Source: Synechococcus sp. A15-24 (GTDB taxonomy: Bacteria; Cyanobacteriota; Cyanobacteriia; PCC-6307; Cyanobiaceae). Taken from it: a DNA stretch of 32,000 nucleotides. The position numbers and the translations under genes were made by a program. This document shows positions 3,314 through 23,041 of the stretch, piece by piece; position 1 is the first letter of the stretch; each line of letters begins with the position of its first letter. The stretch is taken from contig NZ_CP047960.1 of assembly GCF_014280195.1 (NCBI RefSeq), forward strand, positions 2,220,001 through 2,252,000, read 5' to 3'. The notes beneath the pieces were generated by a model, which saw only the letters and a program-made list of their open reading frames with translations, was not told where the DNA came from and did no database searches.

Positions 3314-5023
3314 ATGCCCTACCGCATCTCCCGCCAGGCCTACGCCGAGACCTACGGACCCACCACCGGCGACCGGGTTCGCCTGGCCGACACCGAGCTG
3401 ATCCTCGAAGTCGAGAAGGATTTCACCGTGTACGGCGACGAGGTGAAGTTCGGCGGCGGCAAGGTGATTCGCGATGGCATGGGCCAGTCCCAGACCCCTC
3501 GAGCCGAGGGCGCCGTCGACACGGTGATCACCAATGCTCTGATCCTGGATTGGTGGGGCATCGTCAAAGCCGATGTCGGACTGAAAGACGGCCGGATCGT
3601 GGGCATCGGCAAAGCCGGCAACCCCGACACCCAGGAAGGGGTGACCATCGTGGTGGGCCCCGGCACCGAGGCGATCGCTGGGGAAGGTCACATCCTCACG
3701 GCCGGTGGCATCGACACCCACATCCACTTCATCTGCCCCCAGCAGATCGAAACAGCTCTGGCCAGTGGCGTCACCACCCTGATGGGAGGCGGCACCGGAC
3801 CAGCCACCGGCACCAACGCCACCACCTGCACCCCCGGCGCCTTCCACATCGGGCGAATGCTCCAGGCAGCGGAAGGCCTGCCGGTGAATCTGGGCTTCTT
3901 CGGCAAGGGCAACGCCAGCACCCCTGAAGCCCTGGAAGAACAGGTGCGCGCCGGCGCCTGCGGCTTGAAGCTGCATGAAGACTGGGGCACCACACCGGCA
4001 ACGATCGATGCCTGCCTGTCGGTGGCCGACCGGATGGATGTGCAGGTGTGCATCCACACCGACACCTTGAATGAAGCCGGCTTCGTGGAAGACACGATCG
4101 CCGCCATCAAGGGACGCACCATTCACACCTTCCACACCGAAGGTGCCGGCGGCGGCCATGCACCGGACATCATCAAGATCTGCGGCAAAGCGAATGTGCT
4201 GCCAAGCAGCACCAACCCCACCCGGCCCTACACCCGCAACACGCTTGAGGAGCACCTCGACATGCTGATGGTGTGCCACCACCTCGATCCGAAGATCCCG
4301 GAAGACGTGGCTTTTGCCGAATCGCGGATTCGCCGCGAAACGATCGCCGCCGAAGACATCCTTCACGACCTGGGCGCCTTCTCGATCATCGCCAGCGACT
4401 CCCAGGCCATGGGGCGCGTGGGCGAAGTGATCACCCGCACCTTCCAGACCGCCCACAAGATGAAGGTGCAGCGCGGTGCACTGCCGGAAGACTCCAACCG
4501 CAATGACAACCATCGGCTGAAGCGCTACATCGCCAAGGTGACAATCAACCCCGCTCTTGCCCATGGCATCAGCAGCGAGGTGGGCTCGATCGAAACCGGC
4601 AAGCTCGCCGATCTCGTGCTGTGGAAGCCGGGCTTCTTCGGCATTCGCCCGGAACTAGTGGTGAAGGGCGGTTCGATCGTCTGGGCCCAGATGGGCGATG
4701 CGAACGCCTCGATCCCAACCCCCGGCCCCGTGCACGGCCGGCCGATGTTCGGCGCCTTCGGCAAAGCCCTCGCCCCCAGTTGTCTCACCTTCGTGAGCGA
4801 AGCGGCGATGGATGCCGACATCCAATCAAAACTCAGGCTTGACCGCACTTGCATGGCGGTGAAGGACACCCGCAGCGTGGGCAAGAGCGCCCTCAAGCTG
4901 AATGCAGCGCTGCCCAAGGTGAGCGTGGACCCGCAGACCTATGAGGTGTTCGCCGACGGTGAACTGCTCACCTGCGAGCCCGCTGAGGTGCTGCCCCTGG
5001 CCCAGCGCTATCTGTTGCTGTAA
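3314..5023 (+). CDS. ureC: Urease alpha (catalytic) subunit UreC
   Basis: 569 aa. Contains the Ni-site and flap motifs [38 protein letters not shown] and MLMVCHHLD. Starts 3 nt after the ureB stop. Confidence 0.97.
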
Positions 5024-5226: not shown

Positions 5227-5394
5227 ATGACGACTCTTCTCTACAGAGGTCACGCCTACCAGCAGGTCAAAGACGCTGCTCAACAGCAGAGCGTGCAACT
5301 CACCTACCGCCGCAACGTGTATCAAGCCCGCCAGGCTGATGTGCGTCAGGCCCGGGTTCAGCTCACCTACCGGGGTGTCAGCTACCTGCGCTGA
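5227..5394 (+). CDS. Small DUF4278-type repeat protein (55 aa)
   Basis: MTTLLYRGHAYQQVKDAAQQQSVQLTYRRNVYQARQADVRQARVQLTYRGVSYLR carries three copies of the L-x-YRG/R-x-x-Y module typical of cyanobacterial DUF4278 proteins. A GAGGA lies 7 nt upstream of the ATG at 5227. The track's 5209 start adds 6 residues. Confidence 0.7.
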   Translation: MTTLLYRGHAYQQVKDAAQQQSVQLTYRRNVYQARQADVRQARVQLTYRGVSYLR

Positions 5395-5405
5395 AAACCG
5401 CTTCT

Positions 5406-6080
5406 TCAGGCGACAAGCCGGTTGAGCATGGGCAATTCCAGCAGTTCATCGCGCCACTGCTGAGCCCATCGATCCTGGCTGCGTTCGTAGAGCTCCATCA
5501 GCTCCTCGACAGCACCGGCACGGTAGTCAACGCGAAGGTCCAGCAATGGAAATGCCGCTTCGCCGCTCACCTGCAGAGCGGCGGAGGTGCAGCTTGGTGA
5601 ACGTTGGTCGCCACCAGCCTGCTCTCCTGCCAGCAGGGCAGTCATCAAACGATGGCCCAGTTTCCAGTTGGGATCACTGGTGAGAAACGTCTGTTCCATC
5701 GCCTCCAGCACCACTTCGCCAGCCAGGCAGTTACCCGCAACCGAAAGGTTGGGATGATGCCGATGACCGGCCCATCCGCCGCACTCAACTCCAGTCCAGC
5801 AAGCCGTGCGCCCATCAAGATCGATCAGATGGAACTGGCGCCAATCCCGTTGGGGGTCATCCAGCAGAAGGCTGTTCAGCACATCCTGCGCATCCGCATG
5901 CTGTTCAAGACGCTCCAGTCCGCAAATTCCCAGATAAGGATTGGTGTGAGCTTGGGTTGCGACGGCACCAACTCCAGATCGGATGTGGGGAACAGTGGAG
6001 CCCACGGCCAGGTGACAGGTCGCTACGGCAACGCCGAAACGACCGTTGTTGGGATCTCGCGCCAGGATTGAAAAGGTCAA
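5406..6080 (-). CDS. DUF1028 family protein (Ntn-hydrolase fold, predicted amidohydrolase)
   Basis: (M)TFSILARDPNNGRFGVAVATCHLAVGSTVPHIRSGVGAVATQAHTNPYLG... matches the conserved DUF1028 N-terminus. I place the start at TTG 6080..6078, which overlaps the upstream stop as cTTGAcc and yields Met-Thr. The track's longer ORF (to 6140) would overlap the upstream gene by 64 nt. Confidence 0.75.
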   Translation of the reverse strand: MTFSILARDPNNGRFGVAVATCHLAVGSTVPHIRSGVGAVATQAHTNPYLGICGLERLEQHADAQDVLNSLLLDDPQRDWRQFHLIDLDGRTACWTGVECGGWAGHRHHPNLSVAGNCLAGEVVLEAMEQTFLTSDPNWKLGHRLMTALLAGEQAGGDQRSPSCTSAALQVSGEAAFPLLDLRVDYRAGAVEELMELYERSQDRWAQQWRDELLELPMLNRLVA

Positions 6081-7393
6081 GACAGCTCGAGATCCAAACG
6101 CTGCAGCGTCCCCAGCAAGACGGCAGCCCCAGCCCAGCACTGCTCGTCACTGGTGAATTCCTTGGCTGAGTGGCTGAGCCCACCACGGCTGGGGACGAAG
6201 ATCATTCCCATCGGCCAGCGACGCCCGATCTCCTGAGCATCGTGACTGGCACGGCTGGGGAGGTGGCTATGCGACAACCCCAGATCCTCTGCAGCAGAGA
6301 CGATCGCTGCCATCACTCCATCCGCTGCAGCTGTGGGTTCCACCTCAAATTGCGGTTCCAACTGGATTGGGCATCCGGTTTCGGCACCGATTCGCTCCAC
6401 CTGCTGCATCAACTCAGCCACCAACTGATCGAGCACAACTGAGTTCACATCCCGAAGGTCAACGGTCAGTGCCACTGAGCCCGGCACCACATTGGCGGCG
6501 TTGGGCCAGACCTCGAGTCGACCAACTGTGGCAACGGGATCGCCCGGGTGCTGTCGTGCCATCGTCTCCACTGCCAGCACGATCCGAGACGCCGCCACCA
6601 GAGCGTCCTGCCGCAGGGTCATCGGCGTGGTGCCGGCGTGGTTCGGCTGACCATCCACCTGGATGCTGAAACGGCGTTGTCCCACAACGCCCTCCACCAC
6701 ACCGATGTCGTCACCGCGTTGCTCGAGCACGCCTCCCTGTTCCACATGAAGCTCAAGAAAAGCAGCACACGCATCGTCCGCCCGACGCGCTGAGGCCAAC
6801 GATGGCCAGTGGCCACCGATACGAGCGAGATTGTCCTCGATCGGTTCCCGATTGCTGGTGGCATAGGCCTTGGGGTCACAGGAAGCCGTTCCGGCCATGC
6901 CCTTGCACCCAACCATCGTCGATTCCTCATCGGCGAAGGCGATCAACTCGAGATCGTGCTGAAGACAAATGCTGTTGTCCTGCAAGGAGCGACAGACTTC
7001 AAGACCTGCCAGAACCCCCAACACACCGTCAAAGCGCCCACCGGTGGGAACGGTGTCGAGGTGGGAACCGGTCATCAGTGCTGGGCGATCCGGATCCAAC
7101 CCCTGAAGCCGACCGATCAGGTTGCCCACCGTATCGATCCGAACCTGAAGACCAGCCTCGTTCATCCATCGGGCCAGCAAGGCACGTCCCGCAACGTCCT
7201 CAGTCGAGAAACCCCGTCGACAGACGCTGCCATCGGGCTGCAGCCCAATGGCAGCCATTTCAGCCAAGGATTGCATCAGACGCTCACGGTTGGGTCGAAT
7301 GCCCACCTGTGCGTTCGACCGAGCAGTGACCTGGCATGTGGTCAGGAGGGACGGCAATGCAGTGGCCTTCAGATCAAAAGATCTTTTCACCAT
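6077..7393 (-). CDS. M20-family amidohydrolase of the carbamoylase / allantoate amidohydrolase / beta-ureidopropionase type
   Basis: 438 aa. Contains ...LMTGSHLDTVPTGGRFDGVLGVLAGLEV... and ...QPNHAGTTPM..., signatures of the hydantoinase/carbamoylase amidase family. The exact start is uncertain. Confidence 0.8.
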   Translation of the reverse strand: MVKRSFDLKATALPSLLTTCQVTARSNAQVGIRPNRERLMQSLAEMAAIGLQPDGSVCRRGFSTEDVAGRALLARWMNEAGLQVRIDTVGNLIGRLQGLDPDRPALMTGSHLDTVPTGGRFDGVLGVLAGLEVCRSLQDNSICLQHDLELIAFADEESTMVGCKGMAGTASCDPKAYATSNREPIEDNLARIGGHWPSLASARRADDACAAFLELHVEQGGVLEQRGDDIGVVEGVVGQRRFSIQVDGQPNHAGTTPMTLRQDALVAASRIVLAVETMARQHPGDPVATVGRLEVWPNAANVVPGSVALTVDLRDVNSVVLDQLVAELMQQVERIGAETGCPIQLEPQFEVEPTAAADGVMAAIVSAAEDLGLSHSHLPSRASHDAQEIGRRWPMGMIFVPSRGGLSHSAKEFTSDEQCWAGAAVLLGTLQRLDLELS

Positions 7394-7452
7394 CGCCGCA
7401 GCGACCCAAACGGCCTGTCGTCAATGCGACGTTTTAACCCTCACCAAAGAAT

Positions 7453-9477
7453 TCAAACGGGCATCAGCACCCGCCACCCGAGGCGATCAGCCTGCTCGCG
7501 AGCCTGGGCTGGCACATCGGCCGCTACAAACATCCGATGCAGCATCTGGACACCCAGGAGGTGGTTGATGACGGCGTCCATCTGAACCCGCTCGGCGTCG
7601 GTAGTGGCAGGGTCGTCGTGGCGCGCAAACAAGGCACTAACGCCCTCTTTGCTCAACAACCCAGCCGCATCAATCGCTTCATCACTCAGGTAATCATCAG
7701 CCAACTGCTTCATCTGCGCCCACTTCTCGGGCTCCGTGTGGGCCGGGGGCGCCATGAAGGCAAATTTTTCGCGCTTGTAGAGCACCTCCGGCAGTAGGCC
7801 CGCCATGGCCTCCCGCAGCACATATTTCTCAGTTTTCCCCTTGATCCGCAGCTCTGGAGGCACCTGAACCGCCGCGGCCGCCAGATGGTGATCCAGGAAA
7901 GCCGGCCGTGCCTCCATGGAGTTGGCCATGTCGACGCGATCACCTCCCCAGGTGAGGATCTGGCCTTCCAACATCGTTTTGATCCAGACGTACTGAGCCT
8001 TGTCGAGGGCATGGCGACCATCGAGTTGCTGGGGATTCAACTGCTCAGCAATGGCCTTACCTGGCGAGTACTCCACCAACGCCTGACGGTGCTCGTCAGC
8101 CAGCAGATCCGGCACCAGCGGCGCGCAGGCCAGCCAAGGCTGCAGACAGCTGGGGGTGAAGCCCACCACGGCATCAAGATCGGGATCATCCACCTGATCG
8201 GCCGCCAGCATCGCTCCCTGCACCAGCGAATTGTTGGTCTGCAGCAGAGACTCCCAATCCTGGCGATCGTTCTGCGGCAGTGCCTCCAGACCATGGAGGA
8301 ACATGTCACGCCGAAACGCGGGATAGCCACCAAACAGCTCGTCTGACCCTTCCCCGGTCATCACGACTTTGTAGTCGACACTGTTGACATGGCGACTCAT
8401 CAAGTATTTGGCCACAGCCAAGGTGTTGTAAATCGTGCGCTCGGTGTGCCAGAGCGTTTGTTCCATGTGGCCGTACAACTCACGACCCGACAGACGCATG
8501 ACGTCCTGCTCGGCACCGGTGGCCTCCGCCATCTCGGCAGCAATGGGTGTTTCGTCGTAGCGCGCATCATCGAAGCCGATCGTGAAGGCCTTGACGGGAC
8601 CCTGACTCACCGCCGACGCAAGACCGAGGATCGAACAACTGTCGATGCCGCCTGAGAGGTAACAACCCACGGGCACGTCGGCCACCATCCGCATCTCCAC
8701 CGCTTCCAGCAAAGCAGCACGAACATTGGCGATGTGATCAGCCTCCGTGAGGGTGCTGTCCCGCTGATCCAAACGTGGAAAATCGACATCCCAGTAGGTC
8801 GACTTCGACACCTCCAGCCGGTCACCCCTGCGCTGCACCTTCAGCACATGACCGGGCTGAACCTGGTGCACCCCGGCGAAGGCGGTAGTTCCCGGGACCA
8901 TGGTCTGCATCAACTGATGAAAAAGACCCTCCGACGTGAAACGTCGCTCCACGGCCGGGTGAGCAAACAGCACCTTCAACTCGGAGCCGAACACCAACCC
9001 CTCCGGCGTCATCGTCCAGTACTGGGGCTTGATGCCGAAGCGATCCCTCACCAAATAGAGACAGTCATCCGCCGCATCAAACAGCGCAAAGGCGAATTCC
9101 CCCCGCAGCAAAGGCAACGTGGACTCGAGACCCTGCCGTTGATACAGGCGCAGCAAAATCTCGGAATCACTCTTCGAGGAGAAACGCACCCCCTGGGCGG
9201 TGAGATCAGCTCGGATGCGCTGAAAGTCGTAGAACTCGCCGTTGTGCGCCATCAGCACCTGACGGTCGTTGCTGAGAAACGGCTGACGTGCCCGGGATTC
9301 GTTCAAATCAATGATCGACAAGCGGGCATGACAGAAGCCGACACCGGCTGCGTCGAGGCATTCCACACCGAAACCATCCGGTCCGCGATGGGACTGGATG
9401 GCCGCCATGTTGACCAACAGCTGGCGATCCAACGTCTGATGACGATCCGCCAGAAACACACCTCCGATTCCGCACAT
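7453..9477 (-). CDS. Asparagine synthase (glutamine-hydrolysing)-type amidotransferase, long form (674 aa)
   Basis: MCGIGGVF... provides the Cys2 Ntn nucleophile. Also has HRGPDG, SDSEILL, and the PP-loop CYLSGGIDSC. The start lies 9 nt after the upstream stop, with GAGG spanning that stop. Confidence 0.85.
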   Translation of the reverse strand: MCGIGGVFLADRHQTLDRQLLVNMAAIQSHRGPDGFGVECLDAAGVGFCHARLSIIDLNESRARQPFLSNDRQVLMAHNGEFYDFQRIRADLTAQGVRFSSKSDSEILLRLYQRQGLESTLPLLRGEFAFALFDAADDCLYLVRDRFGIKPQYWTMTPEGLVFGSELKVLFAHPAVERRFTSEGLFHQLMQTMVPGTTAFAGVHQVQPGHVLKVQRRGDRLEVSKSTYWDVDFPRLDQRDSTLTEADHIANVRAALLEAVEMRMVADVPVGCYLSGGIDSCSILGLASAVSQGPVKAFTIGFDDARYDETPIAAEMAEATGAEQDVMRLSGRELYGHMEQTLWHTERTIYNTLAVAKYLMSRHVNSVDYKVVMTGEGSDELFGGYPAFRRDMFLHGLEALPQNDRQDWESLLQTNNSLVQGAMLAADQVDDPDLDAVVGFTPSCLQPWLACAPLVPDLLADEHRQALVEYSPGKAIAEQLNPQQLDGRHALDKAQYVWIKTMLEGQILTWGGDRVDMANSMEARPAFLDHHLAAAAVQVPPELRIKGKTEKYVLREAMAGLLPEVLYKREKFAFMAPPAHTEPEKWAQMKQLADDYLSDEAIDAAGLLSKEGVSALFARHDDPATTDAERVQMDAVINHLLGVQMLHRMFVAADVPAQAREQADRLGWRVLMPV

Positions 9478-9486
9478 CAGTTCGCC

Positions 9487-10701
9487 TCAGATCACATCCA
9501 TCACTCGCTCGGCACGGTTCACCATGCAAGTGAGCAGTGCCATGCGCAGAAACACCGCCCCACGCGCCTGGCTGAAATACCAGTTGTGCGGCGTCTCATC
9601 AAGACAGGTGCTCAGCTCGGAACCCCGGGCCAAGGGATGCAGCACGATCGCCTCCGGCTTGAACGGCAGATCCCGGGTGAGACGAAATCCACCGCCGTGC
9701 ACCTCGTAGCTGTCGCCAACCCAGGCAATCGCATTGATGTAAACGACATCCAGATCGGGAATCTCAGCAGCCAGATCTGAACTGCAGCGGATGGACATCC
9801 CGCTTGCTTCCAGTTCCTCCAGCTGGCCTGGATCGAACAAAGGCGCTTCAGACTCCACCTCGGGCGCATGAATCACCACCACCTCCTCCAGGATCTGGGG
9901 GAATTTGCTGAGGATCCGCAGCAGCGAGCGCACGGTGCGCATCCGCGACGGCAAGCCGATCACCCCGATGCGGATCCGATCCTCCGGGGAGACCTCTTTC
10001 GAAGCAAGGCTTGGACGCCATTTGAACATCGTGTAGAGATCCGCCATCGCCTGTGTCGGATGCTCATCAATGCCGTTACCGGCATTGATGATCGGAATCC
10101 GCAGGGTGGAACTCATGGCGTACACGGCCTCCGGATTGCTGTCGCGAAGCACCACACAGTCGCCGTAGTTGTTGAACATGTGCGCCACGTCCTCGAGCGA
10201 CTCCCCCTTGGCGATGCCGGTGGTGCTGCGATCGGTGATGTTGATGGAATCACCGCCAAGACGATGCCAGGCGCTGTCGAAGGAGAGGCGTGTGCGCGTG
10301 CTGGGCTCGTAGAACGCGTTGATCAGGATCTTGCCGGTGAGCGGCGTGTTGTGCCGGCAGTAACGGTCTGGGTTGCTTTCGAATTTCGCCGCCAGTCGAA
10401 ACAGCTGGAGCAGGGTTTCAGCGCGAAATGCCTGAATCGACACCACGTGTTGATCGACGAGATCCACCAACGGCTCGCCGTCTTCAGCGATTGCGGCCAA
10501 AAGCTCCTGCGGCTGATTGTTGCCGAACACATCAGGACCCATCGGCTGGAAGCGGAGCGGCGCCGAAGCTTCCTCGATCACGGCTGTGCGGGGTTGTGCC
10601 ATAAGCAGTTGCATCAACACCCGATTTGCCAGATCGCGTGATGTGCCATGAATCACATCATCCTTCGCTAACAACGCACCAACACCCCTGGCCAGCTTCA
10701 A
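9487..10701 (-). CDS. Aspartate/ornithine carbamoyltransferase-family protein, PyrB-like paralog with N-terminal extension; second substrate unknown
   Basis: Contains YEPSTRTRLSF (the carbamoyl-phosphate STRTR motif), HPTQAMADL, VLHPLARG (equivalent to HPLPR) and TPHNWYFSQA. The start is uncertain: TTG 10701, GTG ~10656, or ATG 10614/10602. Confidence 0.75.
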   Translation of the reverse strand: MKLARGVGALLAKDDVIHGTSRDLANRVLMQLLMAQPRTAVIEEASAPLRFQPMGPDVFGNNQPQELLAAIAEDGEPLVDLVDQHVVSIQAFRAETLLQLFRLAAKFESNPDRYCRHNTPLTGKILINAFYEPSTRTRLSFDSAWHRLGGDSINITDRSTTGIAKGESLEDVAHMFNNYGDCVVLRDSNPEAVYAMSSTLRIPIINAGNGIDEHPTQAMADLYTMFKWRPSLASKEVSPEDRIRIGVIGLPSRMRTVRSLLRILSKFPQILEEVVVIHAPEVESEAPLFDPGQLEELEASGMSIRCSSDLAAEIPDLDVVYINAIAWVGDSYEVHGGGFRLTRDLPFKPEAIVLHPLARGSELSTCLDETPHNWYFSQARGAVFLRMALLTCMVNRAERVMDVI

Positions 10702-10778
10702 AGAAGTTCTTTATACAAATTTCTAGAAAATAGTTCGACTGAATACTAAATCCGCCACAAATTGTTCAGCTTGAACAT

Positions 10779-10925
10779 TCACCAGACGCGTCCATTGCGC
10801 CATTCGAACCACCAAATCACCAGCAACGCGAGCACAGAACAGACGAGCGCCACCTGGCTTCCCACCAGGACCAGACCGAACCAGTGTTGATCCACCAGAA
10901 CCGTGAACAGCAACGCATTGGCCAT
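10779..10925 (-). CDS. Unannotated 48-aa two-helix membrane micro-protein
   Basis: Below the track's length cutoff. MANALLFTVLVDQHWFGLVLVGSQVALVCSVLALLVIWWFEWRNGRVW. The ATG lies 5 nt after the symporter stop, and GAGGAGG falls inside the last symporter codons at ideal spacing. Third-codon positions are mostly G/C, as in neighbouring genes. Confidence 0.6.
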   Translation of the reverse strand: MANALLFTVLVDQHWFGLVLVGSQVALVCSVLALLVIWWFEWRNGRVW

Positions 10926-10930
10926 GGCGT

Positions 10931-12361
10931 TCACACCTCCTCTTGCAAAAGATTGAAATCAAACCCTTCCGGCTGCCAGCGGCTGCCCACCACCATCACG
11001 ACAGCCGAAACGGCTGCGGAGAACACCGCCGCGCAATAGGGAGCAATCAGAACGTAGGCCGACAGTCCCACGGCACTGCCGGCTGCCATGGCGACGATCG
11101 CTGCCCAACGATTGGCAGAAGACCAGTAGAGACCGCAAGCCACAGGCCAGACCGTGGAGGCCACCAACGCTCCGGTGAAGAACAGCACCGACGCCAACGA
11201 ATCCAGCCGCGGCCAGGACAGGGCCAGGGTGAGCACAGCCAGGCCAACCACCATCTGCCTGGCCGCCTGCTTGAGCTGTGCATCGCTCGCCTGGGGGCGC
11301 AGCAGACGGAAATAGACGTCTTCCGCCAGCAGATCCGCCGTGGACGCCAACAGCGAATCCAGGGTGGAAGTGAGTGACGCGAAGACCACCACAAACACCA
11401 GTGCCGCCCCACCCGCGCCGAGCAGATCCGCTGCCATCACAGGGAACACCATGTTCACCTGCTCCAGCGGCAGGTCCCTGGCGAGCGCAACCAGTCCGAT
11501 CGATCCCGTCACCAGGGGGACACTCATCCAGGCCAATCCCCCCAAGACAAACGAGGTCATCACCACACTGCGCCGGCTAGCGAACACCCGCGACCACCAG
11601 ATGTTGTTGTGAAAGACCTCACCCATCGAGAACAGAGCGGAATTCCAGGCGATCAGCAGACCAGCCGGAAGCAAGAGATCCAGCCGGTCAGGGTGCGCAC
11701 TGATCAAGCGGGCATGCACCTCCGGCATCGGGAACTGACGGAACGCCAGCACCGCCACCACCGCCAGCAACACCATGATCAGCAGCGACTGAATGAAATC
11801 GGTTCCGATCACGGCCCGCATGCCGCCGAACAGGGTATAGACGGTGGCGACGCCGATCACCACCACCATGCCCACGTGGTAATCGAAGCCGGAGAGCGCC
11901 TGAAGCAACAGACCGGCCCCCATGGCCTGGGTCATCAGAAAACCGAGGGTGTACACAGCGGTGATCACCATGAACACCCACCACGCCAGGCGCCCGTAAC
12001 GCAACCGGATGAAATCACCACTGGTGCGGCCATACGGCATCAGCTGCTTGATCCGCACGGCCAGCGGCGCGAACAGGATCAAGCCCAGACCGGCCAGGGC
12101 ATAACTGAACATGCCCCAAAGACCAGTCCTGTAGCCGAATTCCGGAGCCAGCAGTGTGGTGTTTCCTGTCACCCAGGAGGCCATCAGCGTGGCCGTGCTC
12201 AACGCCAACCCGATGTTGCGTCCGGCCAGCATGTAGTCGTCGGCATCTCCTTTACCGCGGCGGCCCCAGACGATCCCCAGGGCGATCCACAGCACGGAAA
12301 ACAATACAACCAGGGCCCAGGCGATGCCAGGCGCCAGAAATGGTGCGGCGTCAACGAGCAT
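10931..12361 (-). CDS. Sodium:solute symporter (SSS/SLC5) family transporter, substrate unknown
   Basis: ~476 aa polytopic membrane protein: MLVDAAPFLAPGIAWALVVLFSVLWIALGIVWGRRGKGDADDYMLAGRNIGLALSTATLMASWVTGNTTLL..., an SSS-typical N-terminal region. The start is either ATG 12361 or GTG 12379. Confidence 0.85.
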   Translation of the reverse strand: MLVDAAPFLAPGIAWALVVLFSVLWIALGIVWGRRGKGDADDYMLAGRNIGLALSTATLMASWVTGNTTLLAPEFGYRTGLWGMFSYALAGLGLILFAPLAVRIKQLMPYGRTSGDFIRLRYGRLAWWVFMVITAVYTLGFLMTQAMGAGLLLQALSGFDYHVGMVVVIGVATVYTLFGGMRAVIGTDFIQSLLIMVLLAVVAVLAFRQFPMPEVHARLISAHPDRLDLLLPAGLLIAWNSALFSMGEVFHNNIWWSRVFASRRSVVMTSFVLGGLAWMSVPLVTGSIGLVALARDLPLEQVNMVFPVMAADLLGAGGAALVFVVVFASLTSTLDSLLASTADLLAEDVYFRLLRPQASDAQLKQAARQMVVGLAVLTLALSWPRLDSLASVLFFTGALVASTVWPVACGLYWSSANRWAAIVAMAAGSAVGLSAYVLIAPYCAAVFSAAVSAVVMVVGSRWQPEGFDFNLLQEEV

Positions 12362-12476
12362 CGACCGACCCCCGATCACGCCAGTGCAGATGGCCCTGAA
12401 TGATCATCGCCACCGTTGCCAGGGTCACCGCAGCACCGAGGGCAAAGATCAGTCCAGCCCAGAGATTGTCATCCAA
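12351..12476 (-). CDS. Unannotated 41-aa single-helix membrane micro-protein (possible symporter small accessory subunit)
   Basis: Below the track cutoff. (TTG)DDNLWAGLIFALGAAVTLATVAMIIQGHLHWRDRGSVDAR. GAGGAG lies 7 nt upstream of the TTG. The stop overlaps the symporter's 5' end by 11 nt. Confidence 0.45.
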   Translation of the reverse strand: MDDNLWAGLIFALGAAVTLATVAMIIQGHLHWRDRGSVDAR

Positions 12477-12609: not shown

Positions 12610-12625
12610 TGTAGCAATCACAACC
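12610..12625. promoter_or_regulatory. NtcA-like half-consensus site TGTAGCAATCACAACC (GTA-N8-AAC)
   Basis: Lies in the divergent region between the symporter operon and the ATP-grasp gene. Shares the GTAGCAA left half with the sites at 5129 and 18334. The right half is degenerate and I found no convincing -10 element. Confidence 0.3.
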
Positions 12626-12674
12626 CGCGGGGCCCTGATCGAGTTTTTGGATGCGCCTATTCATCGTTCAGGCA

Positions 12675-14147
12675 ATGTTCACCGAGTACCGACCAACCCA
12701 TGGGTACGACGAATATTTTTGCCGTGAACAGTCCGCTCCCCGCGCTGATCTGGAGCCGCTGCTGTCCTCTCTTGGAGCCATGGGGCTGGCGGAACTGAAT
12801 CGCAGTCATGCATCAGCGAGCAATCTGTTGCGACGCCTTGGCGCCACCTTCCGACTCAACGGATCAGGTCTGCATGGCGGAGAGCGGATCCTTCCCTTCG
12901 ATCCACTGCCAAGACTCATTCACCGTCAGGAATGGTCCAATCTGGAACGCGGATTGGTGCAACGCCTGGAGGCTATTGATCAGTTTCTGGCGGACGTTTA
13001 TGGACCCCAACGGATCCTCAACGATGGCGTGATCCCCCGTGAGGATGTGGAGAGCTCCCAGGGCTGGCGGCCCCAGATGCAAGACATCGCCGTGCCGCTC
13101 AACCGCTGGTGCCACATCTCAGGAGTAGATCTGATCCGCGATGGCGACGGCACCTGGAGGGTTCTGGAGGACAACCTGCGCTGCCCCTCCGGCGTGGCTT
13201 ATTTCCTTGAGAACCGTCGGGTGATGAAGCGGTTGTTCCCCAGCCTGTTCCAAGGGCGAACCGTGCAGCCTATCGACGATTACCCCTCCCATCTCTTGCG
13301 CACGTTGCAGGATCTGGCCCCTTGGAGTGATGCTCCACGGGTGGTGCTGCTCACCCCCGGCGTGTTCAACAGCGCCTACTTCGAGCACAGCTATCTGGCC
13401 CAGCAGATGGGCATTGCCCTGGTGGAAGGCCGCGATCTGATCTGTGAGGACGGACGCGTCTGGATGCGCAGCACGGCCGGTCGGGAACCTGTGGATGTGA
13501 TCTACAGGCGCATCGATGACGATTTCCTCGATCCGAACGTGTTCCGACGCGATTCGATGCTTGGTGTCCCTGGCCTCATCGATGCCATGCGCTCCGGTCG
13601 GGTGGCCATCGCCAACGCCCCTGGGGGCGGTGTCGCCGACGACAAGCTGATCTATGCCTACGTGCCGGCCATGATCCGTTACTACCTCAACGAAGAACCG
13701 ATCATCGACAACGTCCCCACCTATCTCTGCTCAAGGGACGACGACCGCCGTTATGTGCTCGAACATCTCAACAAACTGGTGGTGAAATCAGTCGCCGAGG
13801 CAGGCGGCTACGGAATGTTGATCGGGCCCCACGCCAGCTCTGAGGAGATTGAGAGCTTCGCGGTGAAGATCAAAGCTCACCCGCGCAATTTCATCGCCCA
13901 GCCCACGCTGCAGTTATCCACAGTTCCATCCCTCAGCGAAGGGGAGCTGTACCCCTGCCATGTGGATCTGCGCCCCTACGTGCTCCGGGGTAAGAGCGAC
14001 TGGGTCAGCCCCGGCGGCTTGACTCGTGTAGCCCTGAAACGCGGTTCCCTTGTGGTGAACTCCTCCCAGGGGGGCGGCTGCAAGGACACCTGGGTGGTCA
14101 GCGACAGCGCTGTAACGGCTGACAATCAGGAGCTCGTGCCGTGCTGA
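12675..14147 (+). CDS. Circularly permuted type-2 ATP-grasp protein (COG2308 / DUF404-DUF407 type)
   Basis: MFTEYRPTHGYDEYF... through ...GVPGLIDAMRSGRVAIANAPGGGVADDKLIYAYVP... and ...LVVKSVAEAGGYGMLIGP..., a family-typical sequence and length (~490 aa). The track start at 12651 adds 8 residues. Confidence 0.85.
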   Translation: MFTEYRPTHGYDEYFCREQSAPRADLEPLLSSLGAMGLAELNRSHASASNLLRRLGATFRLNGSGLHGGERILPFDPLPRLIHRQEWSNLERGLVQRLEAIDQFLADVYGPQRILNDGVIPREDVESSQGWRPQMQDIAVPLNRWCHISGVDLIRDGDGTWRVLEDNLRCPSGVAYFLENRRVMKRLFPSLFQGRTVQPIDDYPSHLLRTLQDLAPWSDAPRVVLLTPGVFNSAYFEHSYLAQQMGIALVEGRDLICEDGRVWMRSTAGREPVDVIYRRIDDDFLDPNVFRRDSMLGVPGLIDAMRSGRVAIANAPGGGVADDKLIYAYVPAMIRYYLNEEPIIDNVPTYLCSRDDDRRYVLEHLNKLVVKSVAEAGGYGMLIGPHASSEEIESFAVKIKAHPRNFIAQPTLQLSTVPSLSEGELYPCHVDLRPYVLRGKSDWVSPGGLTRVALKRGSLVVNSSQGGGCKDTWVVSDSAVTADNQELVPC

Positions 14148-15124
14148 GCCGTGTGGCCGATTCGCTGTACTGGATCAACCGGTATGTCGAGCGGGCCGAA
14201 AACATCTCCCGGTTTCTGGAAGTGAGCGAAGCAATGGCCCTGGATTGCCCCCCGGGCAGCGCTGAGCCCTGGCTTCCGCTAGTGGATGCCAATGGGGACC
14301 GCAAGCGTTTTGACGAGGCCTATCCTCAGGGCACACCACGGGACGTCGTCAGCTTTTTGCTGCTGGATCGCGACAACCCCAACAGCATCGTGAGTTGCAT
14401 CGCCAACGCCCGTGAGAACGCTCGCCAAATCCGCGATGTGATCACCACGGAAATGTGGGAGCAGCTCAATGACCTCTATTGGAACGTTCAAGACGGTGAG
14501 GCGCTCTGGCAGGAGCCGGATCAAGAACAGCTGCGCAGCATCCGACGCGGATGTCAGCTCTTCTACGGCATCACAGACGTGACCCTCAGTCGTGATCAAG
14601 CCTGGCTGTTCAGCCAGCTGGGACAGCTGATCGAACGGGCGGACAAAACCTCCCGCATCCTCGATGTGAAGTACTTCCTGCTGTTGCCAACGCCAACGGA
14701 GGTGGGCGGCGTTCTCGATGAATTGCAGTGGATCTCACTGCTTCGAACAGCTGGGGCTTATCAGATGTATCGCCAGAGCGTGCAGCAGGCGATCACACCA
14801 GCATCAGTGGCACGATTCCTGCTCCTGGATCAGATCTTTCCCCGTTCGGTTCGCTTCTGCCTGCAACAGATCAACGAGACGCTGCAACGCATTCAGACGA
14901 AACCCCACGCCGGCCCACCGGATGACCTGGAATGCCTGGGCGGTCAGTTGCTGGCCCAATGGAGCTACGTCCGCATTGACGCTCTGATCGAACGTGGACT
15001 GCATGAGGCCATCGATCAACTGCAAAGCGATCTGAACAGGATGCATGGCCTCATCCACCGCTGCTACTTCACCACCACCGACCTGGGCTCCATCCCCACC
15101 GACCCGTCATGCGCGCTGAGCTGA
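14141..15124 (+). CDS. Alpha-E domain protein (COG2307 / DUF403)
   Basis: The GTG start gives MLSRVADSLYWINRYVERAENISRF..., the hallmark alpha-E N-terminus. Overlaps the ATP-grasp stop by 7 nt. Confidence 0.85.
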   Translation: MLSRVADSLYWINRYVERAENISRFLEVSEAMALDCPPGSAEPWLPLVDANGDRKRFDEAYPQGTPRDVVSFLLLDRDNPNSIVSCIANARENARQIRDVITTEMWEQLNDLYWNVQDGEALWQEPDQEQLRSIRRGCQLFYGITDVTLSRDQAWLFSQLGQLIERADKTSRILDVKYFLLLPTPTEVGGVLDELQWISLLRTAGAYQMYRQSVQQAITPASVARFLLLDQIFPRSVRFCLQQINETLQRIQTKPHAGPPDDLECLGGQLLAQWSYVRIDALIERGLHEAIDQLQSDLNRMHGLIHRCYFTTTDLGSIPTDPSCALS

Positions 15125-16008
15125 CCCATTGCCTCACGTACCGCTACGAGGCTCCGGTGCAGCTCGGAGAACACCGCCTCTGTCTGCGGCCCCGGGCCCA
15201 GGGTCATCAACGGCTGATCCACCACACACTGCAGATCACACCGGAACCCTTCCACAGCCATGAGCTGTTGGCCGCCAGTGGCGATGCGATCGAACGCGTG
15301 CGCTTCCGAGGTTGCACCGATTTGCTGCAGCTCGAAGCCAGGAGCTTGGTGGAAACCCGGCAAGCCGCACCGCTGCTCACGTGTTTCAACGGACTTGAAC
15401 CCTCGCTTCCCTATCCGCGCGGTCTGCTGAACCACGACCTGCTGGGGGCTCTGGAAGGGTGGCTGCCCAACGGTCAACACGACCCCTCCGCTGTGGAACT
15501 GGCGCAGGACGCTCTGATGGGAAGCAATCAGCAGGTGCTGCCTTTTCTCCAGCAACTGATGGAGATGATCCAGGACCGGGTCAAGTACACCCAGCGCCAT
15601 GTGGGCCCAGCCTGGCCAGCAGGCCGGACTCTGCGGGAGCGTGTGGGCTCATGCCGTGATCTGGCGATGCTGATGATGGAGTGCTGCCGCAGCGTGGGGC
15701 TGCCGGCTCGGTTTGTGAGTGGTTACCACCTGGCCGAACCAGCACCTGAGACCTACAACCTGCACGCCTGGACCGAGATTTATCTGCCAGGTGCCGGCTG
15801 GCGCGGTTTTGATCCCAGTGCTGGTGGTGAAATCAGCTCGCGATACATCGTGCTCGCCAGTTCCTCCAAACCGGATCTCAGTGCTGCGGTTCAGGGAAGC
15901 TTTACAGGACCCCCAGCAACAACAAGCCACCTCAGCTGGACCATTGACGCAGATGTCGAACCCCGACCGGTCGCCTCGTCCAGCCAAACCATGGTTCAGG
16001 CCGCCTGA
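15109..16008 (+). CDS. Transglutaminase-fold family protein (COG1305) with N-terminal Bact_transglu_N-like region
   Basis: MRAELTHCLTYRYEAPVQLGEHRLCLRPR... plus the catalytic core ...GSCRDLAMLMMECCRSVGLPARFVSGY...HAWTEIYLPGAGWRGFDPS, which supplies the Cys/His/Asp triad context. Overlaps the alpha-E gene by 16 nt. Confidence 0.85.
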   Translation: MRAELTHCLTYRYEAPVQLGEHRLCLRPRAQGHQRLIHHTLQITPEPFHSHELLAASGDAIERVRFRGCTDLLQLEARSLVETRQAAPLLTCFNGLEPSLPYPRGLLNHDLLGALEGWLPNGQHDPSAVELAQDALMGSNQQVLPFLQQLMEMIQDRVKYTQRHVGPAWPAGRTLRERVGSCRDLAMLMMECCRSVGLPARFVSGYHLAEPAPETYNLHAWTEIYLPGAGWRGFDPSAGGEISSRYIVLASSSKPDLSAAVQGSFTGPPATTSHLSWTIDADVEPRPVASSSQTMVQAA

Positions 16009-16487
16009 AGCAGCGGCTCGACACCATGGAGACGGGGTGGCGGAGCCTGAATCGAGGTGACCGCCAACAGCGCTGGAATGCGTGCACTGTTGTAGACGCG
16101 GAATTCCTGCACCAACGACACCCCTTCCTCCCGGACCGCCTGGTTGAGAACCACCGAGCCATCGGGATCCGACACCGACCTGTGAAACGTGCCGGGTGGA
16201 ATGCGCAGGATGTCGCCGCCACTGTCGAGACGCACGATGTGGAACGGCTGATCCCAGGCCAGGTTGACGAGGTAGAACGTTCGCCCACCACTGGCGGCCA
16301 GAAGATTGTCTTCCTGGTGCGGATGGAGATAGAACTGCCAGGCCCCACTGGCTGCATCGTTGGGAGGGCTGACCGCCGGACCACTGTGGATCACCAGATC
16401 GCGGGCATTGGAGGTGTCCACCGTGACGTCGAAAAAACGCACCGCTGGTGTGTCGCGGAAGCGTTCGTAGGCCAGCAGTTCAAACAT
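15996..16487 (-). CDS. Cupin-fold protein of unknown function
   Basis: Both cupin motifs are readable: GAWQFYLHPHQEDNLLAASGG (HxH...E) and GDILRIPPGTFHRSVS (G-x5-P-x-G-x2-H). I prefer the ATG at 16487 (MFELLAYERF...). The track's TTG at 16571 would overlap the moaA stop as TTGA, but that extension has poor G/C content at third-codon positions. Confidence 0.6.
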   Translation of the reverse strand: MFELLAYERFRDTPAVRFFDVTVDTSNARDLVIHSGPAVSPPNDAASGAWQFYLHPHQEDNLLAASGGRTFYLVNLAWDQPFHIVRLDSGGDILRIPPGTFHRSVSDPDGSVVLNQAVREEGVSLVQEFRVYNSARIPALLAVTSIQAPPPRLHGVEPLLQAA

Positions 16488-16567
16488 CTCCTGGGGCGTG
16501 GCAAAGCCCGAGCTCTGAGATGGTTGTACTGGGGTTATCCGAGCAAAACGGTGACGATGGCAACGGT

Positions 16568-17608
16568 TCAACCACCGAGATAAGCCATTTCGGCATGGGG
16601 CATGGAACCGGTCATCCGCTGGCGCTCCTCGCTGTAACGGTCGTCACGGCGCCGCCAGAGATCAGCAACCAGCCGCAGCAATTCCGCCTCACAGTGCAGA
16701 GCGGGTTTCAGATCAGTCCCCACCGACGCGAAGAGGCAGCGGAACGCCTGTCCATTAGCTGTGACCCGCAGTCGATTGCAATCGCCGCAAAATGGCTCGC
16801 TGATCGAGGCGATCACGCCGAGATGTCCACCACCATCGACGTAACGCCAACGCTGAGCTGTTCCGCCGGTGGGTCGGCCAACTGCCTGAAGCGGCCACCG
16901 TGCCCTGATCCGCGTCACCATCTCCGCCGCTGACAGCACCTGATCCGGCCTCCACTGATTGCGGTTGCCTACATCCATGTACTCAATCAGGCGCAATTCC
17001 ACACCTTGATCACGAGCCAGATCCGCCAGAGGCAGAAGCTGATCCTCATTCACCCCCCGTTGGATCACGGCATTGAGCTTGAGTTCCCCCGCCAAAGGGT
17101 CAAAACCAGCGGAACGAGCCGAAGCCAATCCACCGAGCACCTTCTGCACCAATGACTCCCCCGCTGTGGCAGTTGGTCGTCCTGCCATCCGCGCCACCAC
17201 TGCCCCATCCACGCCATCAAGGCTCACGGTGATGCGATCCAAACCGGCCTGCCTGAGCTCGCGAGCTCGCTGGTCGCTCAGCAAGGTCCCATTGGTGGTG
17301 AGGGCCACCTGCTGAAGACCCTGGAGTGGATCGCCAGGCGTTGCCCGTGCTGCCGCGATTGCCTGCAACAGGGGGAGAAGCCGAGCACTGAGCAACGGCT
17401 CGCCACCGGTGAGCCGCAGGGTGTGAATCCCCAGCCGGCAGGCAACACGAATCAGGCACAGCTGCTGCTCGAGCCTGAGCAAATCCGGCGGATCCTCAAG
17501 ATCCGGACAGCAGTAAGGACAGGCCAGGTTGCAGCGGGCCGTCAACGACAACCGAAGCACTCTCAAAGGCCGCGACCGCTGATCGACAAGCGCTGAAGCT
17601 GGTGTCAT
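16568..17608 (-). CDS. moaA: GTP 3',8-cyclase MoaA (radical SAM)
   Basis: MTPASALVDQRSRPLRVLRLSLTARCNLACPYCCP... contains the CxxxCxxC cluster motif, and the protein ends in the MoaA-typical GG tail. The ATG at 17608 overlaps the mobA stop (ATGA). The track's 17710 start lies inside mobA. Confidence 0.9.
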   Translation of the reverse strand: MTPASALVDQRSRPLRVLRLSLTARCNLACPYCCPDLEDPPDLLRLEQQLCLIRVACRLGIHTLRLTGGEPLLSARLLPLLQAIAAARATPGDPLQGLQQVALTTNGTLLSDQRARELRQAGLDRITVSLDGVDGAVVARMAGRPTATAGESLVQKVLGGLASARSAGFDPLAGELKLNAVIQRGVNEDQLLPLADLARDQGVELRLIEYMDVGNRNQWRPDQVLSAAEMVTRIRARWPLQAVGRPTGGTAQRWRYVDGGGHLGVIASISEPFCGDCNRLRVTANGQAFRCLFASVGTDLKPALHCEAELLRLVADLWRRRDDRYSEERQRMTGSMPHAEMAYLGG

Positions 17609-22766: not shown

Positions 22767-23041
22767 CAACGAAGCCGGCGAACGGTGTCAATGATGACAA
22801 CGACCAATCAGGAAATCAGAGATGTTCACCTCGTTACACATCCACGTCCGTGCGATTCGCCCTCTCCCTCGGAATGTTGCTTGGCATGTCCCACGGTTGG
22901 GTGACGGCTGAGGGCCAAGCAAACGACAATTCAGGCCTTGCAGTCGTAAGAACCGTTAAATCGACGACAAGTTTTTCTCCATTCAGTAGCGGTCAACACC
23001 AATTTTTTCCATACTGAAGATCAATACGAGAGTTTTGAGTT

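Follow-up and report, generated by a model that had tools for sequence, protein, structure and literature searches.

A minus-strand cluster of seven genes in the window, the 32,000-nucleotide stretch of Synechococcus sp. A15-24 DNA analysed here, is best explained as a self-contained gene set devoted to a single small metabolite of the ureido-amide type. Judging from the encoded proteins, it might serve the synthesis, recapture and turnover of a small, nitrogen-rich N-carbamoyl amino-acid amide, a reading that we prefer but hold tentatively. The genes keep their order across phyla and encode enzymes with intact catalytic motifs, among them a carbamoyltransferase (CTase, 'pyrB2') that has lost the aspartate-binding motif, together with a DUR3-type symporter whose pocket is altered.

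All seven open reading frames of the original prediction are present, and a base-by-base check showed that the junctions claimed for them are exact. Micro-ORF1 (12351..12476; 41 aa, single transmembrane pass, TTG start) comes first, and its TGA (12353–12351) lies 11 nt inside the symporter gene (10931..12361; SSF family, Pfam SSF, DUR3 subfamily), given a symporter start at ATG 12361; the alternative is an in-frame GTG at 12379. The symporter TGA (10933–10931) is followed 5 nt downstream by the ATG (10925) of micro-ORF2 (10779..10925; 48 aa, single transmembrane pass, C-terminus ...RVW-stop), which is preceded by GAGGAGG at 10942–10936. An AT-rich spacer of ~165 nt (10615..10778; 131–205 nt in other cyanobacterial loci) leads to the CTase, an ATCase-branch carbamoyltransferase paralogue (9487..10614; 375 aa; OTCace_N and OTCace). 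Its stop (9489–9487) is separated by 9 nt from the ATG (9477) of the AsnB-like glutamine-dependent amidotransferase (7453..9477; 674 aa; GATase_6/7 and Asn_synthase). Next, across a gap of 59 nt or more that contains a weak hairpin, comes the M20 amidohydrolase ('pydC/amaB', hydantoinase/carbamoylase type; 6077..7393; Peptidase_M20), whose start is ambiguous (7393, 7306 or 7276). Its TGA (6079–6077) and the TTG start (6080–6078) of the DUF1028 Ntn-type hydrolase (5406..6080; 224 aa; Pfam DUF1028, 218 bits) form a TTGA overlap that argues for translational coupling of DUF1028 to M20. This 4-nt overlap is conserved in loci L086, L092, L093 and L004. The spacing is thus not uniformly tight, and the two sizeable internal gaps make it doubtful that cyanobacteria transcribe all seven genes as one unit; two or three units are more likely.

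Co-occurrence and synteny extend beyond the source genome, and their retention across phyla indicates that the genes are functionally linked. Symporter, CTase and AsnB-like genes are strictly syntenic and contiguous in all 93 fetched loci, which span Cyanobacteria, Gammaproteobacteria and Alphaproteobacteria, and a micro-ORF2-type frame (39–54 aa, one transmembrane helix, W-stop end) sits between symporter and CTase in 92 of them. Scanning genomes for the CTase turned it up in 491 species; nearly all loci read come from marine Gammaproteobacteria or picocyanobacteria, and the named carriers belong to marine or halophilic genera. Ectothiorhodospira was not among the matches listed (80 loci and two 120-protein lists). 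The identical gene arrangement occurs in CC9902. A carbamoylase-type M20 gene is present in about one third of the proteobacterial loci and in every cyanobacterial one, and DUF1028 was seen in cyanobacterial loci only.

To call the cluster undescribed, as had been done, is too strong. It is listed by Doré et al. 2023 (ISME J; PMC10119275) as Syn-eCAG_003 / Pro-eCAG_007, with ureP, pyrB2, asnB, pydC and an Ntn hydrolase, and the region is depicted there in WH8102. The gene order is the same as here: a DUR3-like ureP, a small membrane protein, pyrB2, asnB, pydC/amaB and the Ntn hydrolase (Cyanorak clusters CK_00001890, CK_00055201, CK_00001891, CK_00001822, CK_00001892 and CK_00001893). The picocyanobacterial cluster is enriched in warm N- and P-poor waters, the Prochlorococcus version 'notably in the Red Sea', and among the rows listed that version has the four enzymes and lacks ureP (PMC10119275). 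That paper gives distribution and suggests pyrimidine biosynthesis; the proteobacterial homologues, loss of the aspartate motif, micro-ORF1 and a carbamoyl-amide product are not part of it.

As had been proposed, the CTase is not a true ATCase. Its best solved relatives are ATCases, and it shares with ATCase and UGTCase (ureidoglycine transcarbamylase, also of the ATCase branch; PMC4581275) the fold, a trimer-type carbamoyl-phosphate site (STRTR, HPTQ) and the R167 and K84 equivalents. Across the CTase family, the equivalents of STRTR, HPTQ, R105, R167 and K84 are invariant, as are the contacts to carbamoyl phosphate and the alpha-carboxylate. The 240s loop, however, reads YINAIAW where ATCase has RxQxER, and HPLPR has become HPLAR, which differs from both the HPLP of ATCase and the H(T/S)LP of UGTCase (motif roles as in PMC4581275). 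The positions of E. coli R229 and Q231, which bind the aspartate side chain, both carry Ala, which leaves a larger pocket without charge. The CTase reaches 192.9 with TIGR00670, the ATCase equivalog model, under the cut-off of 236.95. Nor is it the housekeeping pyrB: WH8102 and CC9902 have three transcarbamylase-fold genes each (PMC2242806). No regulatory-chain or pyrimidine genes are linked to the CTase.

The AsnB-like protein has MCGIGG with the Cys2 nucleophile and an SGGIDS PP-loop. With both intact, it is predicted to be a true glutamine-dependent carboxylate amidotransferase, in line with the original assignment. It passes the broad model TIGR01536 and fails the AsnB equivalog, NAGGN AsnO and PEP-CTERM models (298.6 against the NAGGN model TIGR03104, cut-off 570). 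The gene is among the best conserved of the cluster, with 59–77% identity between the protein and its proteobacterial counterparts.

The closest solved relatives of the symporter, named ureP in Cyanorak, are DUR3 urea transporters (120 bits; other SSS members, 42 bits or less). We mapped its pocket on AtDUR3 and compared 85 family members. W93, T98, Y117, W338 and P342 (AtDUR3 numbering) are retained in all 85, whereas W95 is Thr and Y315 is Trp throughout. Half of the urea-contact residues are kept, and the urea-clamping Trp pair, to which W95 belongs, has lost one member. The proton-coupling residues are also lost, D312 being Ser or Asn and E402 being Leu in 84 proteins and Val in one. A half-kept pocket with a clamp Trp changed to Thr is consistent with a ureido ligand bulkier than urea. 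The symporter further differs from DUR3 (TC 2.A.21, urea/H+) in its length of ~475 aa without the eukaryotic C-terminal domain, in having two small membrane partners and in its genetic association, which is with biosynthetic enzymes and not with urease.

Conservation marks the two micro-ORFs as real genes. For micro-ORF1, tblastn finds matches in other Synechococcus, and homologues lie 5' of the symporter gene in L086, L092 and L004; the peptide resembles the C-terminal transmembrane helix of a ~140–195-aa protein (signal peptide, beta domain, transmembrane helix; no Pfam match) encoded ahead of the symporter in 79 proteobacterial loci. Micro-ORF1 probably assists the symporter as an accessory subunit. 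The micro-ORF2 type, in Cyanorak CK_00055201, 'conserved membrane protein', lies directly against the symporter stop or overlaps it; the proteobacterial versions overlap the CTase start as well.

The M20 enzyme passes TIGR01879 (392.5, cut-off 204) and NF006771 (405.8, cut-off 399). Its top match and nearest curated equivalog is ErtE, N-carbamyl-L-glutamate amidohydrolase (427.4, under the cut-off of 520). In 29 proteobacterial loci the core is accompanied by an M20 gene of this NCBIfam subfamily, in varying positions and orientations. The TTG start of DUF1028 gives the N-terminus M-TFSI, in which Thr at position 2 is the presumed N-terminal nucleophile. The sole solved relative, 2imh, is a hypothetical protein.

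From these features we infer substrates, product, order of steps, direction of transport and physiological role as follows. With carbamoyl phosphate as donor, the CTase would carbamoylate the alpha-amino group of an amino acid with a neutral side chain, to judge by its motifs most likely L-glutamine rather than another neutral amino acid. The AsnB-like enzyme would then adenylate the free carboxylate and amidate it with glutamine-derived ammonia, yielding an N-carbamoyl amino-acid amide. The DUR3-type symporter and the two single-pass peptides would take up or recapture this compound, the symporter probably recognising the ureido/amide end, and DUF1028, as an amidase, and the M20 carbamoylase would return it to amino acid, NH3 and CO2. 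Carbamoylase-type M20 enzymes normally require a free alpha-carboxylate, so degradation would need the amidase to act first; this counts against the scheme in proteobacteria, whose loci have no dedicated amidase linked. The compound itself could be a nitrogen-rich compatible solute or a nitrogen reserve, and the picocyanobacterial module may also scavenge what others release. Synthesis and degradation from one locus would risk a futile cycle unless separately regulated. The recurrence of M20 carbamoylases with the core in differing arrangements supports this scheme.

Of the two options first put forward, synthesis plus turnover fits better than pure catabolism, because the conserved core consists of two biosynthetic enzymes and a transporter, with the two hydrolases accessory. 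In the catabolic option, the symporter imports urea, a ureide or an amide (for example allantoate, citrulline or an N-carbamoyl amino acid), M20 and DUF1028 free NH3, and the CTase runs phosphorolytically to carbamoyl phosphate. We regard this as unlikely. It would suit a DUR3-like transporter named ureP, enrichment in N-poor waters (PMC10119275) and the existence of catabolic transcarbamylases, including the ATCase-branch UGTCase, yet the CTase family has HPLAR and not the UGTCase motif (PMC4581275), and neither the DUR3 clamp W95 nor the proton-coupling residues are conserved. The surroundings also speak for nitrogen scavenging. The cluster was said to lie between urease and nrtP/narB/nirA, and it is indeed flanked by ureD/E/F and ureC and by nrtP, narB, moaA, mobA and moeA, but nirA was not found among the ORFs scanned around it. 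This placement is lineage-specific, being found in the window, CC9902 and a lagoon MAG and, among the loci compared, not in CB0101, HK05, Aphanocapsa feldmannii or any proteobacterium. In Thiothrix nivea the cluster adjoins nirBD. A candidate NtcA-type box (GTTGTGATTGCTAC; 12611..12624, minus strand), a match to the consensus, lies 5' of micro-ORF1 and the symporter within a block, GT[TG]-N8-TAC, conserved in the window, CC9902 and the lagoon MAG. Against scavenging, urease lies within 9 kb in 0 of 85 proteobacterial loci, no carbamate kinase is linked to the cluster, and about two thirds of the proteobacterial loci lack the hydrolases. The universal, highly conserved AsnB-like enzyme, which consumes ATP and glutamine, is left without a catabolic role, and the Prochlorococcus version, among the rows listed, lacks the transporter, which implies enzymes that do not depend on its cargo.

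That same absence of ureP, again among the rows listed, favours two separate neighbouring functions in cyanobacteria, namely a transporter unit for urea or small amides (micro-ORF1, symporter, micro-ORF2), which would serve the adjoining urease, and a four-enzyme unit. The 131–205-nt spacer between micro-ORF2 and CTase is found in all cyanobacterial loci, and candidate promoter boxes precede each unit. The spacer, which has no Rfam match, possibly holds an internal promoter: a GTA-N8-AAC box (~10746–10733), partly conserved in CC9902 and missing from the lagoon MAG, is followed by TATAAA. We nevertheless think a division of this kind improbable, since symporter and enzymes are contiguous in every locus from Cyanobacteria to Gamma- and Alphaproteobacteria, are translationally coupled through the micro-ORF in proteobacteria with no urease nearby, and stay paired outside the nitrogen island in CB0101, HK05 and A. 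feldmannii.

Slightly less probable again is a different product made by new chemistry, with the carbamoyl group as a transient N-protection removed by M20, or with the PP-loop enzyme aminating the ureido carbonyl to give a guanidino compound. The four enzymes could form one linear sequence, and the M20 protein also matches TIGR01910, the family of the deprotecting enzyme ArgE. The PP-loop GMP synthetase aminates a ureido-type carbonyl, but the AsnB family offers no precedent, most proteobacterial loci do without M20 and DUF1028, and the sequences give no specific pointer to either version.

Least probable of all is the "alternative pyrimidine biosynthesis" of Doré et al. 2023, a speculative assignment in which PyrB2 makes carbamoyl-aspartate or carbamoyl-beta-alanine and AsnB and PydC tie to pyrimidine synthesis or salvage, recycling complex nitrogen forms: the published eCAG annotation ('biosynthesis of pyrimidines'; PMC10119275), the ATCase-branch position of PyrB2 and the beta-ureidopropionase-type enzymes among the M20 relatives (hence pydC) favour it, but it fits the sequence poorly because the CTase keeps its carbamoyl-phosphate site without the ATCase-defining RxQxER, has Ala at R229/Q231 and falls below the equivalog cut-off; moreover, a dihydroorotase or dihydropyrimidinase-type gene is linked in 0 of 93 loci, carboxylate amidation and a dedicated symporter are left without a role, and WH8102 and CC9902 already have a canonical pyrB (PMC2242806).

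The N-carbamoyl amino-acid amide reading is further supported by an architectural precedent, the 'trio' for NAGGN (N-acetylglutaminylglutamine amide). This trio, as we take it, consists of the AsnO amidotransferase, the Ngg N-acetyltransferase/ligase and an M42 hydrolase. In both systems one locus combines an N-capping enzyme, an AsnB-type amidotransferase for the terminal carboxylate and a metallohydrolase, and the product would likewise be an uncharged, amide-rich solute. Here, by contrast, the cap would be carbamoyl, from a transcarbamylase fold, instead of acetyl, from a GNAT; the lack of a peptide ligase implies a single-residue product; the hydrolase is M20; and a dedicated symporter is always present in the cluster. 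CGA, C6H12N4O3, is a known osmolyte with a role in salt protection, and to our knowledge the sole natural product with exactly N-carbamoyl and amide modifications. A four-nitrogen solute would be costly in the N-poor waters where the cluster is enriched, which weakens a solute role, and the main solutes of Synechococcus WH8102 by NMR are reportedly glycine betaine and glucosylglycerol, not CGA. The searchable literature holds no CGA biosynthetic genes. The cluster may be this missing pathway, given its marine or halophilic carriers and a Prochlorococcus version in the Red Sea, a high-salinity basin.

The seven ORFs occupy positions 5406–12476 on the minus strand. They are, in order, a 41-aa micro-ORF (micro-ORF1), an SSF-family symporter (ureP), a 48-aa micro-ORF (micro-ORF2), an ATCase-like carbamoyltransferase with OTCace_N/OTCace domains (CTase; pyrB2), an AsnB-like protein with GATase and Asn_synthase domains, an M20 hydrolase (pydC/amaB) and a DUF1028 protein. 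All junctions in the original prediction were checked in the sequence and are correct. Micro-ORF1 overlaps the symporter by 11 nt, if the symporter starts at ATG 12361. Micro-ORF2 starts at ATG 10925 behind a GAGGAGG, with the symporter stop 5 nt before, and the AsnB-like ATG follows the CTase stop after 9 nt. Stop of M20 and start of DUF1028 share TTGA, and the resulting N-terminus, M-TFSI, is typical of an Ntn hydrolase. These four tight junctions favour the single operon that had been proposed, but sizeable gaps precede the CTase (an AT-rich spacer of ~165 nt) and M20 (at least 59 nt with a weak hairpin), which weakens it. Judging by the layout, cyanobacteria may instead have as many as three units, the first with micro-ORF1, symporter and micro-ORF2, the second with CTase and AsnB, and the third with M20 and DUF1028.

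The cluster is flanked on one side by ureF, ureE, ureD and ureC, and on the other by a divergent CP_ATPgrasp/Alpha-E/transglutaminase trio followed by moaA, mobA, nrtP, narB and moeA. The expected setting between urease and nitrate genes (nrtP, narB) therefore stands, whereas nirA, which the original prediction named, was not among the window ORFs scanned. The trio (CP_ATPgrasp_2, Alpha-E and transglutaminase-like; 12651–16583, plus strand), followed by a 185-aa ORF without family match, adjoins the cluster in CC9902 and a lagoon MAG. We rejected it as a pathway part, as it is divergent and missing next to the cluster in CB0101, HK05, Aphanocapsa feldmannii and all proteobacterial loci. Between narB and moeA lie a beta-carbonic-anhydrase-family gene (23389–24087, plus strand) and a 'nitrate reductase-associated protein' gene (22299–22769, minus strand). 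A '5_ureB_sRNA' Rfam match (166 bits; 3469–3755, minus strand), antisense within ureC and present in CC9902 too, most likely marks conserved coding sequence of urease and not a gene for an sRNA. The window is high-GC picocyanobacterial DNA (G+C ~0.62). At 30001–32000 the G+C falls from ~0.63 to ~0.44 and the ORFs are all short (<90 aa); the boundary of an island gained by horizontal transfer may lie here.

Marine Synechococcus and some Prochlorococcus are among Earth's most abundant phototrophs, and the cluster sits in a nitrogen-assimilation island of such organisms. In the literature searched, its function has never been addressed by experiment, and the eCAG paper of Doré et al. 2023 (PMC10119275) is the sole relevant one; beyond the proposal made there, of an alternative pyrimidine pathway, the search returned no pathway assignment. 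The gene table rows for the cluster in that paper list ureP/DUR3, a conserved membrane protein, pyrB2, asnB, pydC/amaB and an Ntn aminohydrolase. Gene content and order in the window match the Dataset 6 rows for Syn-eCAG_003, and the CC9902 genome is arranged alike. Given this listing, 'undescribed' has to be reduced to 'catalogued but uncharacterised': the cluster is known, its pathway is not. According to Doré et al. (PMC10119275), most Synechococcus from warm waters replete in Fe and poor in N and P carry the cluster, while most clade I, IV, CRD1 and EnvB genomes lack it. About one-fifth of Prochlorococcus HLII genomes carry it, 'notably in the Red Sea', in a version that has no ureP in the table rows examined. 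Relative to the literature searched, what is new is that the cluster spans phyla, that the evidence speaks against ATCase specificity and that the DUR3 pocket is altered; new too are two conserved membrane peptides and a concrete, testable hypothesis of a product like N-carbamoyl-L-glutamine 1-amide (CGA) or N-acetylglutaminylglutamine amide (NAGGN), both osmolytes.

A protein search found CTase homologues of 62–68% identity in Gammaproteobacteria, and relatives turned up in 491 species when one genome of each species was scanned. All of the best 80 of these 491 come from gammaproteobacterial taxa that are marine or halophilic (Idiomarina, Pseudidiomarina, Aliidiomarina, Kangiella, Pleionea, Aliikangiella, Pseudoalteromonas, Ketobacter and Thiotrichaceae). 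The matches listed, the best 80 of the scan and the best 120 of two protein searches, are all Idiomarina-, Kangiella- or Pseudoalteromonas-type taxa or picocyanobacteria; the absence of Ectothiorhodospira, the genus of the known CGA producer E. marismortui, from both sets is uninformative on carriage. An exact-sequence look-up with the window AsnB-like protein and the RSCCF101 CTase returned no match. Symporter, CTase and AsnB-like genes are co-oriented neighbours in all 93 loci compared, with identities to the window proteins of 42–50%, 60–68% and 59–77%, respectively. The seven-gene cluster occupies the same site, from the ATP-grasp trio to ureC, in CC9902 and in lagoon and reef metagenome contigs, and another genomic site in CB0101, HK05 and the sponge symbiont A. 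feldmannii. In a MAG of the latter, the AsnB-like gene is called as two ORFs of 382 and 267 aa (L089, 9155–11284); pseudogene formation or faulty assembly could explain this. In Thiothrix nivea, nirB, nirD and a formate/nitrite transporter lie beyond the symporter–CTase–AsnB triad (L001, 14933–18609), with a VTT-domain gene, a toxin–antitoxin pair and a small DUF433 ORF between the triad and nirB. This makes two cases in which the module lies near nitrogen-assimilation genes.

The best solved relatives of the symporter are DUR3 urea transporters (120 bits, against at most 42 for other SSS proteins). We mapped the pockets of 85 family members onto the published AtDUR3 pocket. W93, T98, Y117, W338 and P342 are kept in all 85, while W95 is Thr and Y315 is Trp throughout. 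The proton-coupling residues are gone, D312 being Ser or Asn and E402 being Leu in 84 of 85. Of the urea-clamping Trp pair W95/W338, Y315 and the proton residues D312/E402 that characterize DUR3, W338 alone thus remains. Because the DUR3 pocket is partly kept and partly replaced, it may recognize a ureido group while being enlarged for a bigger ligand, and is probably not H+-coupled. None of the 85 proteobacterial loci has a urease within 9 kb.

Two small membrane proteins accompany the symporter. A micro-ORF2-type gene, of 39–54 aa with one TM helix and a Trp-stop end, is present in 92 of 93 loci; the proteobacterial version overlaps the symporter stop at one end and the CTase start at the other. 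In 79 proteobacterial loci the symporter is immediately preceded by a gene for a conserved protein of ~140–195 aa (for example, T. nivea L001, 8021–8452). It combines a signal peptide and a beta-rich domain, of the pattern EGYF..L.W ... LSGF.DG.YYFR ... V.V.H, with a TM helix at the C-terminus, and matches no Pfam family. In cyanobacteria only the TM helix is left, as micro-ORF1. The proteobacterial protein may be a periplasmic accessory subunit of the SSS transporter.

The closest solved relatives of the CTase are ATCases (~150 bits). Its carbamoyl-phosphate site is present (STRTR, HPTQ and the R105 equivalent), invariant in a 13-sequence family alignment and alignable to Arabidopsis PYRB; the R167 and K84 equivalents are also invariant. 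A review of the enzyme family defines ATCase by the motif RxQxER in the 240s loop, with R229 and Q231 binding aspartate (PMC4581275). In the CTase this loop reads YINAIAW, both ligand positions for the aspartate side chain are Ala, and HPLPR is changed to HPLAR; across the family these changes vary little or not at all. The CTase also scores below the ATCase equivalog cut-offs (TIGR00670, 192.9 versus 236.95; NF002032, 184.8 versus 263). The family has HPLA where the signature of ureidoglycine transcarbamylase (UGTCase) is H(T/S)LP (PMC4581275). Judged from these residues, the acceptor would be an alpha-amino acid whose alpha-carboxylate is free and whose side chain is longer and uncharged. 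In a published table (PMC2242806), WH8102 and CC9902 each have three genes of the transcarbamylase fold, SYNW2454 being one of those in WH8102, and Prochlorococcus strains have two; since the former two carry the cluster, pyrB2 is probably an extra paralogue and not the housekeeping pyrB.

The AsnB-like protein has the N-terminal Cys nucleophile (Cys2, MCGIGG) and the PP-loop YLSGGIDS and is therefore a genuine Gln-dependent carboxylate amidotransferase. It passes the broad TIGR01536 model (425 versus 267), scores 263 against a cut-off of 499 on the AsnB equivalog NF006949 and fails the PEP-CTERM equivalogs too. M20 passes carbamoylase-type models (TIGR01879, 392.5 versus 204; NF006771, 405.8 versus 399). 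Its top match is ErtE, an N-carbamyl-L-glutamate amidohydrolase, at 427.4, below the cut-off of 520, and no ert genes for ergothioneine degradation lie near it. A carbamoylase-type M20 is linked in 29 proteobacterial loci, all of one NCBIfam subfamily (493–527 on NF006771, with ErtE second). Its position and orientation differ between loci, which argues for selection on the linkage. The DUF1028 protein matches PF06267 (218 bits), and its start codon gives M-T-F-S, placing a predicted nucleophile at the mature N-terminus as in Ntn hydrolases. Among the compared loci DUF1028 is confined to cyanobacteria, always with the 4-nt overlap with the M20 stop. Its single solved relative is a hypothetical protein, and we found no functional literature on the family.

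The module is thus an invariant core of one transporter and two biosynthetic enzymes with a variable periphery of decarbamoylase and amidase. The original prediction had offered either uptake and breakdown of a ureido/amide compound or synthesis and turnover of an N-carbamoyl amino-acid amide; its observation is confirmed, and its interpretation finds partial support, with the second option favoured. The CTase would add a carbamoyl group and the AsnB-like enzyme would convert a carboxylate to an amide, so that the simplest product would be an N-carbamoyl amino-acid amide. The symporter would recapture or import the compound, and DUF1028 would remove its amide and M20 its carbamoyl group. As a whole, this proposal, drawn from sequence comparison, is tentative, at somewhat less than an even chance; that the product is CGA specifically is possible but doubtful. 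In the reviews searched we found no biosynthetic genes for CGA. The cluster mirrors the NAGGN 'trio' of capping enzyme, AsnB-type amidotransferase and metallohydrolase. It differs in that the AsnB-like protein scores 298.6 on the AsnO-type model TIGR03104 (cut-off 570), the Ngg GNAT/ligase that partners AsnO has no counterpart, as no locus has a GNAT or ATP-grasp gene inside the cluster, and the neighbouring CP_ATPgrasp gene is divergent and absent from non-island loci.

A compatible solute would fit the marine or halophilic carriers and the Red Sea note for the Prochlorococcus version. It would also fit that many carriers, Idiomarina and Kangiella for example, live by proteolysis and are rich in nitrogen. 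Against a carbamoyl-amide solute stands its high nitrogen cost, since the Synechococcus version is enriched in waters where N is scarce. We know of no report of CGA in WH8102, and this too counts against the carbamoyl-amide reading. If the product is a carbamoyl amino-acid amide, an osmolyte that has been known since 1991 but is still an orphan would have its genes, picocyanobacterial physiology would gain a fourth solute or reserve that contains nitrogen, and the transcarbamylase, AsnB and DUR3 families would each gain a new substrate specificity. An unmeasured dissolved organic nitrogen compound would be common to heterotrophs and cyanobacteria, and the annotations 'aspartate carbamoyltransferase', 'asparagine synthase' and 'urea-proton symporter' would need correction in database entries numbering well over a thousand. 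Were the product CGA, this nitrogen-rich carboxamide would be widespread in the sea, both as a solute and as a nitrogen currency that cells exchange. Hundreds of gammaproteobacterial species and most warm-water Synechococcus would make it, and a new three-component DUR3-type symporter recognizing the ureido group would carry it.

Pure scavenging of urea or ureides accounts for the DUR3-like symporter, the nitrogen island, the nirBD neighbour in Thiothrix and the conserved candidate NtcA-like box, but it is unlikely, as it leaves the AsnB-like enzyme without use and the hydrolases are dispensable in most proteobacteria. That two unrelated units merely stand side by side is quite improbable given universal linkage and, in proteobacteria, translational coupling. 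More exotic chemistry, for example temporary protection of the nitrogen or turning a ureido into a guanidino group, we consider very improbable. The alternative pyrimidine pathway is the least credible, since the CTase lacks the Asp site and the cluster has no ring-closing enzyme.

The candidate NtcA-like box lies at 12611–12624, is conserved and matches the consensus GT[TG]-N8-TAC. A second candidate box is at about 10733–10746. A scan for sigma-70 promoters and terminators gave no excess over shuffled expectation, and none of the 79 proteobacterial loci has a sigma-54 promoter upstream of the operon. MarR was rejected as a dedicated regulator: in 41 of 43 loci its gene lies 6–11 kb off and reflects genus-level synteny, and it is adjacent only in L007, one of the compared loci, and in an alphaproteobacterial MAG. 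The cluster leaders contain no riboswitch or Rfam element. The only Rfam match near them, a Glutamine-II riboswitch (RF01704; 5143–5207, plus strand; 68.9 bits, E 2e-15), belongs to a convergent small gene. It lies directly upstream of a 55-aa ORF with DUF4278-type LTYRG repeats (5227–5394, plus strand), which converges on the DUF1028 gene. CC9902 has neither riboswitch nor gene at the gathering threshold; a homologous small gene occupies the same site in the lagoon MAG.
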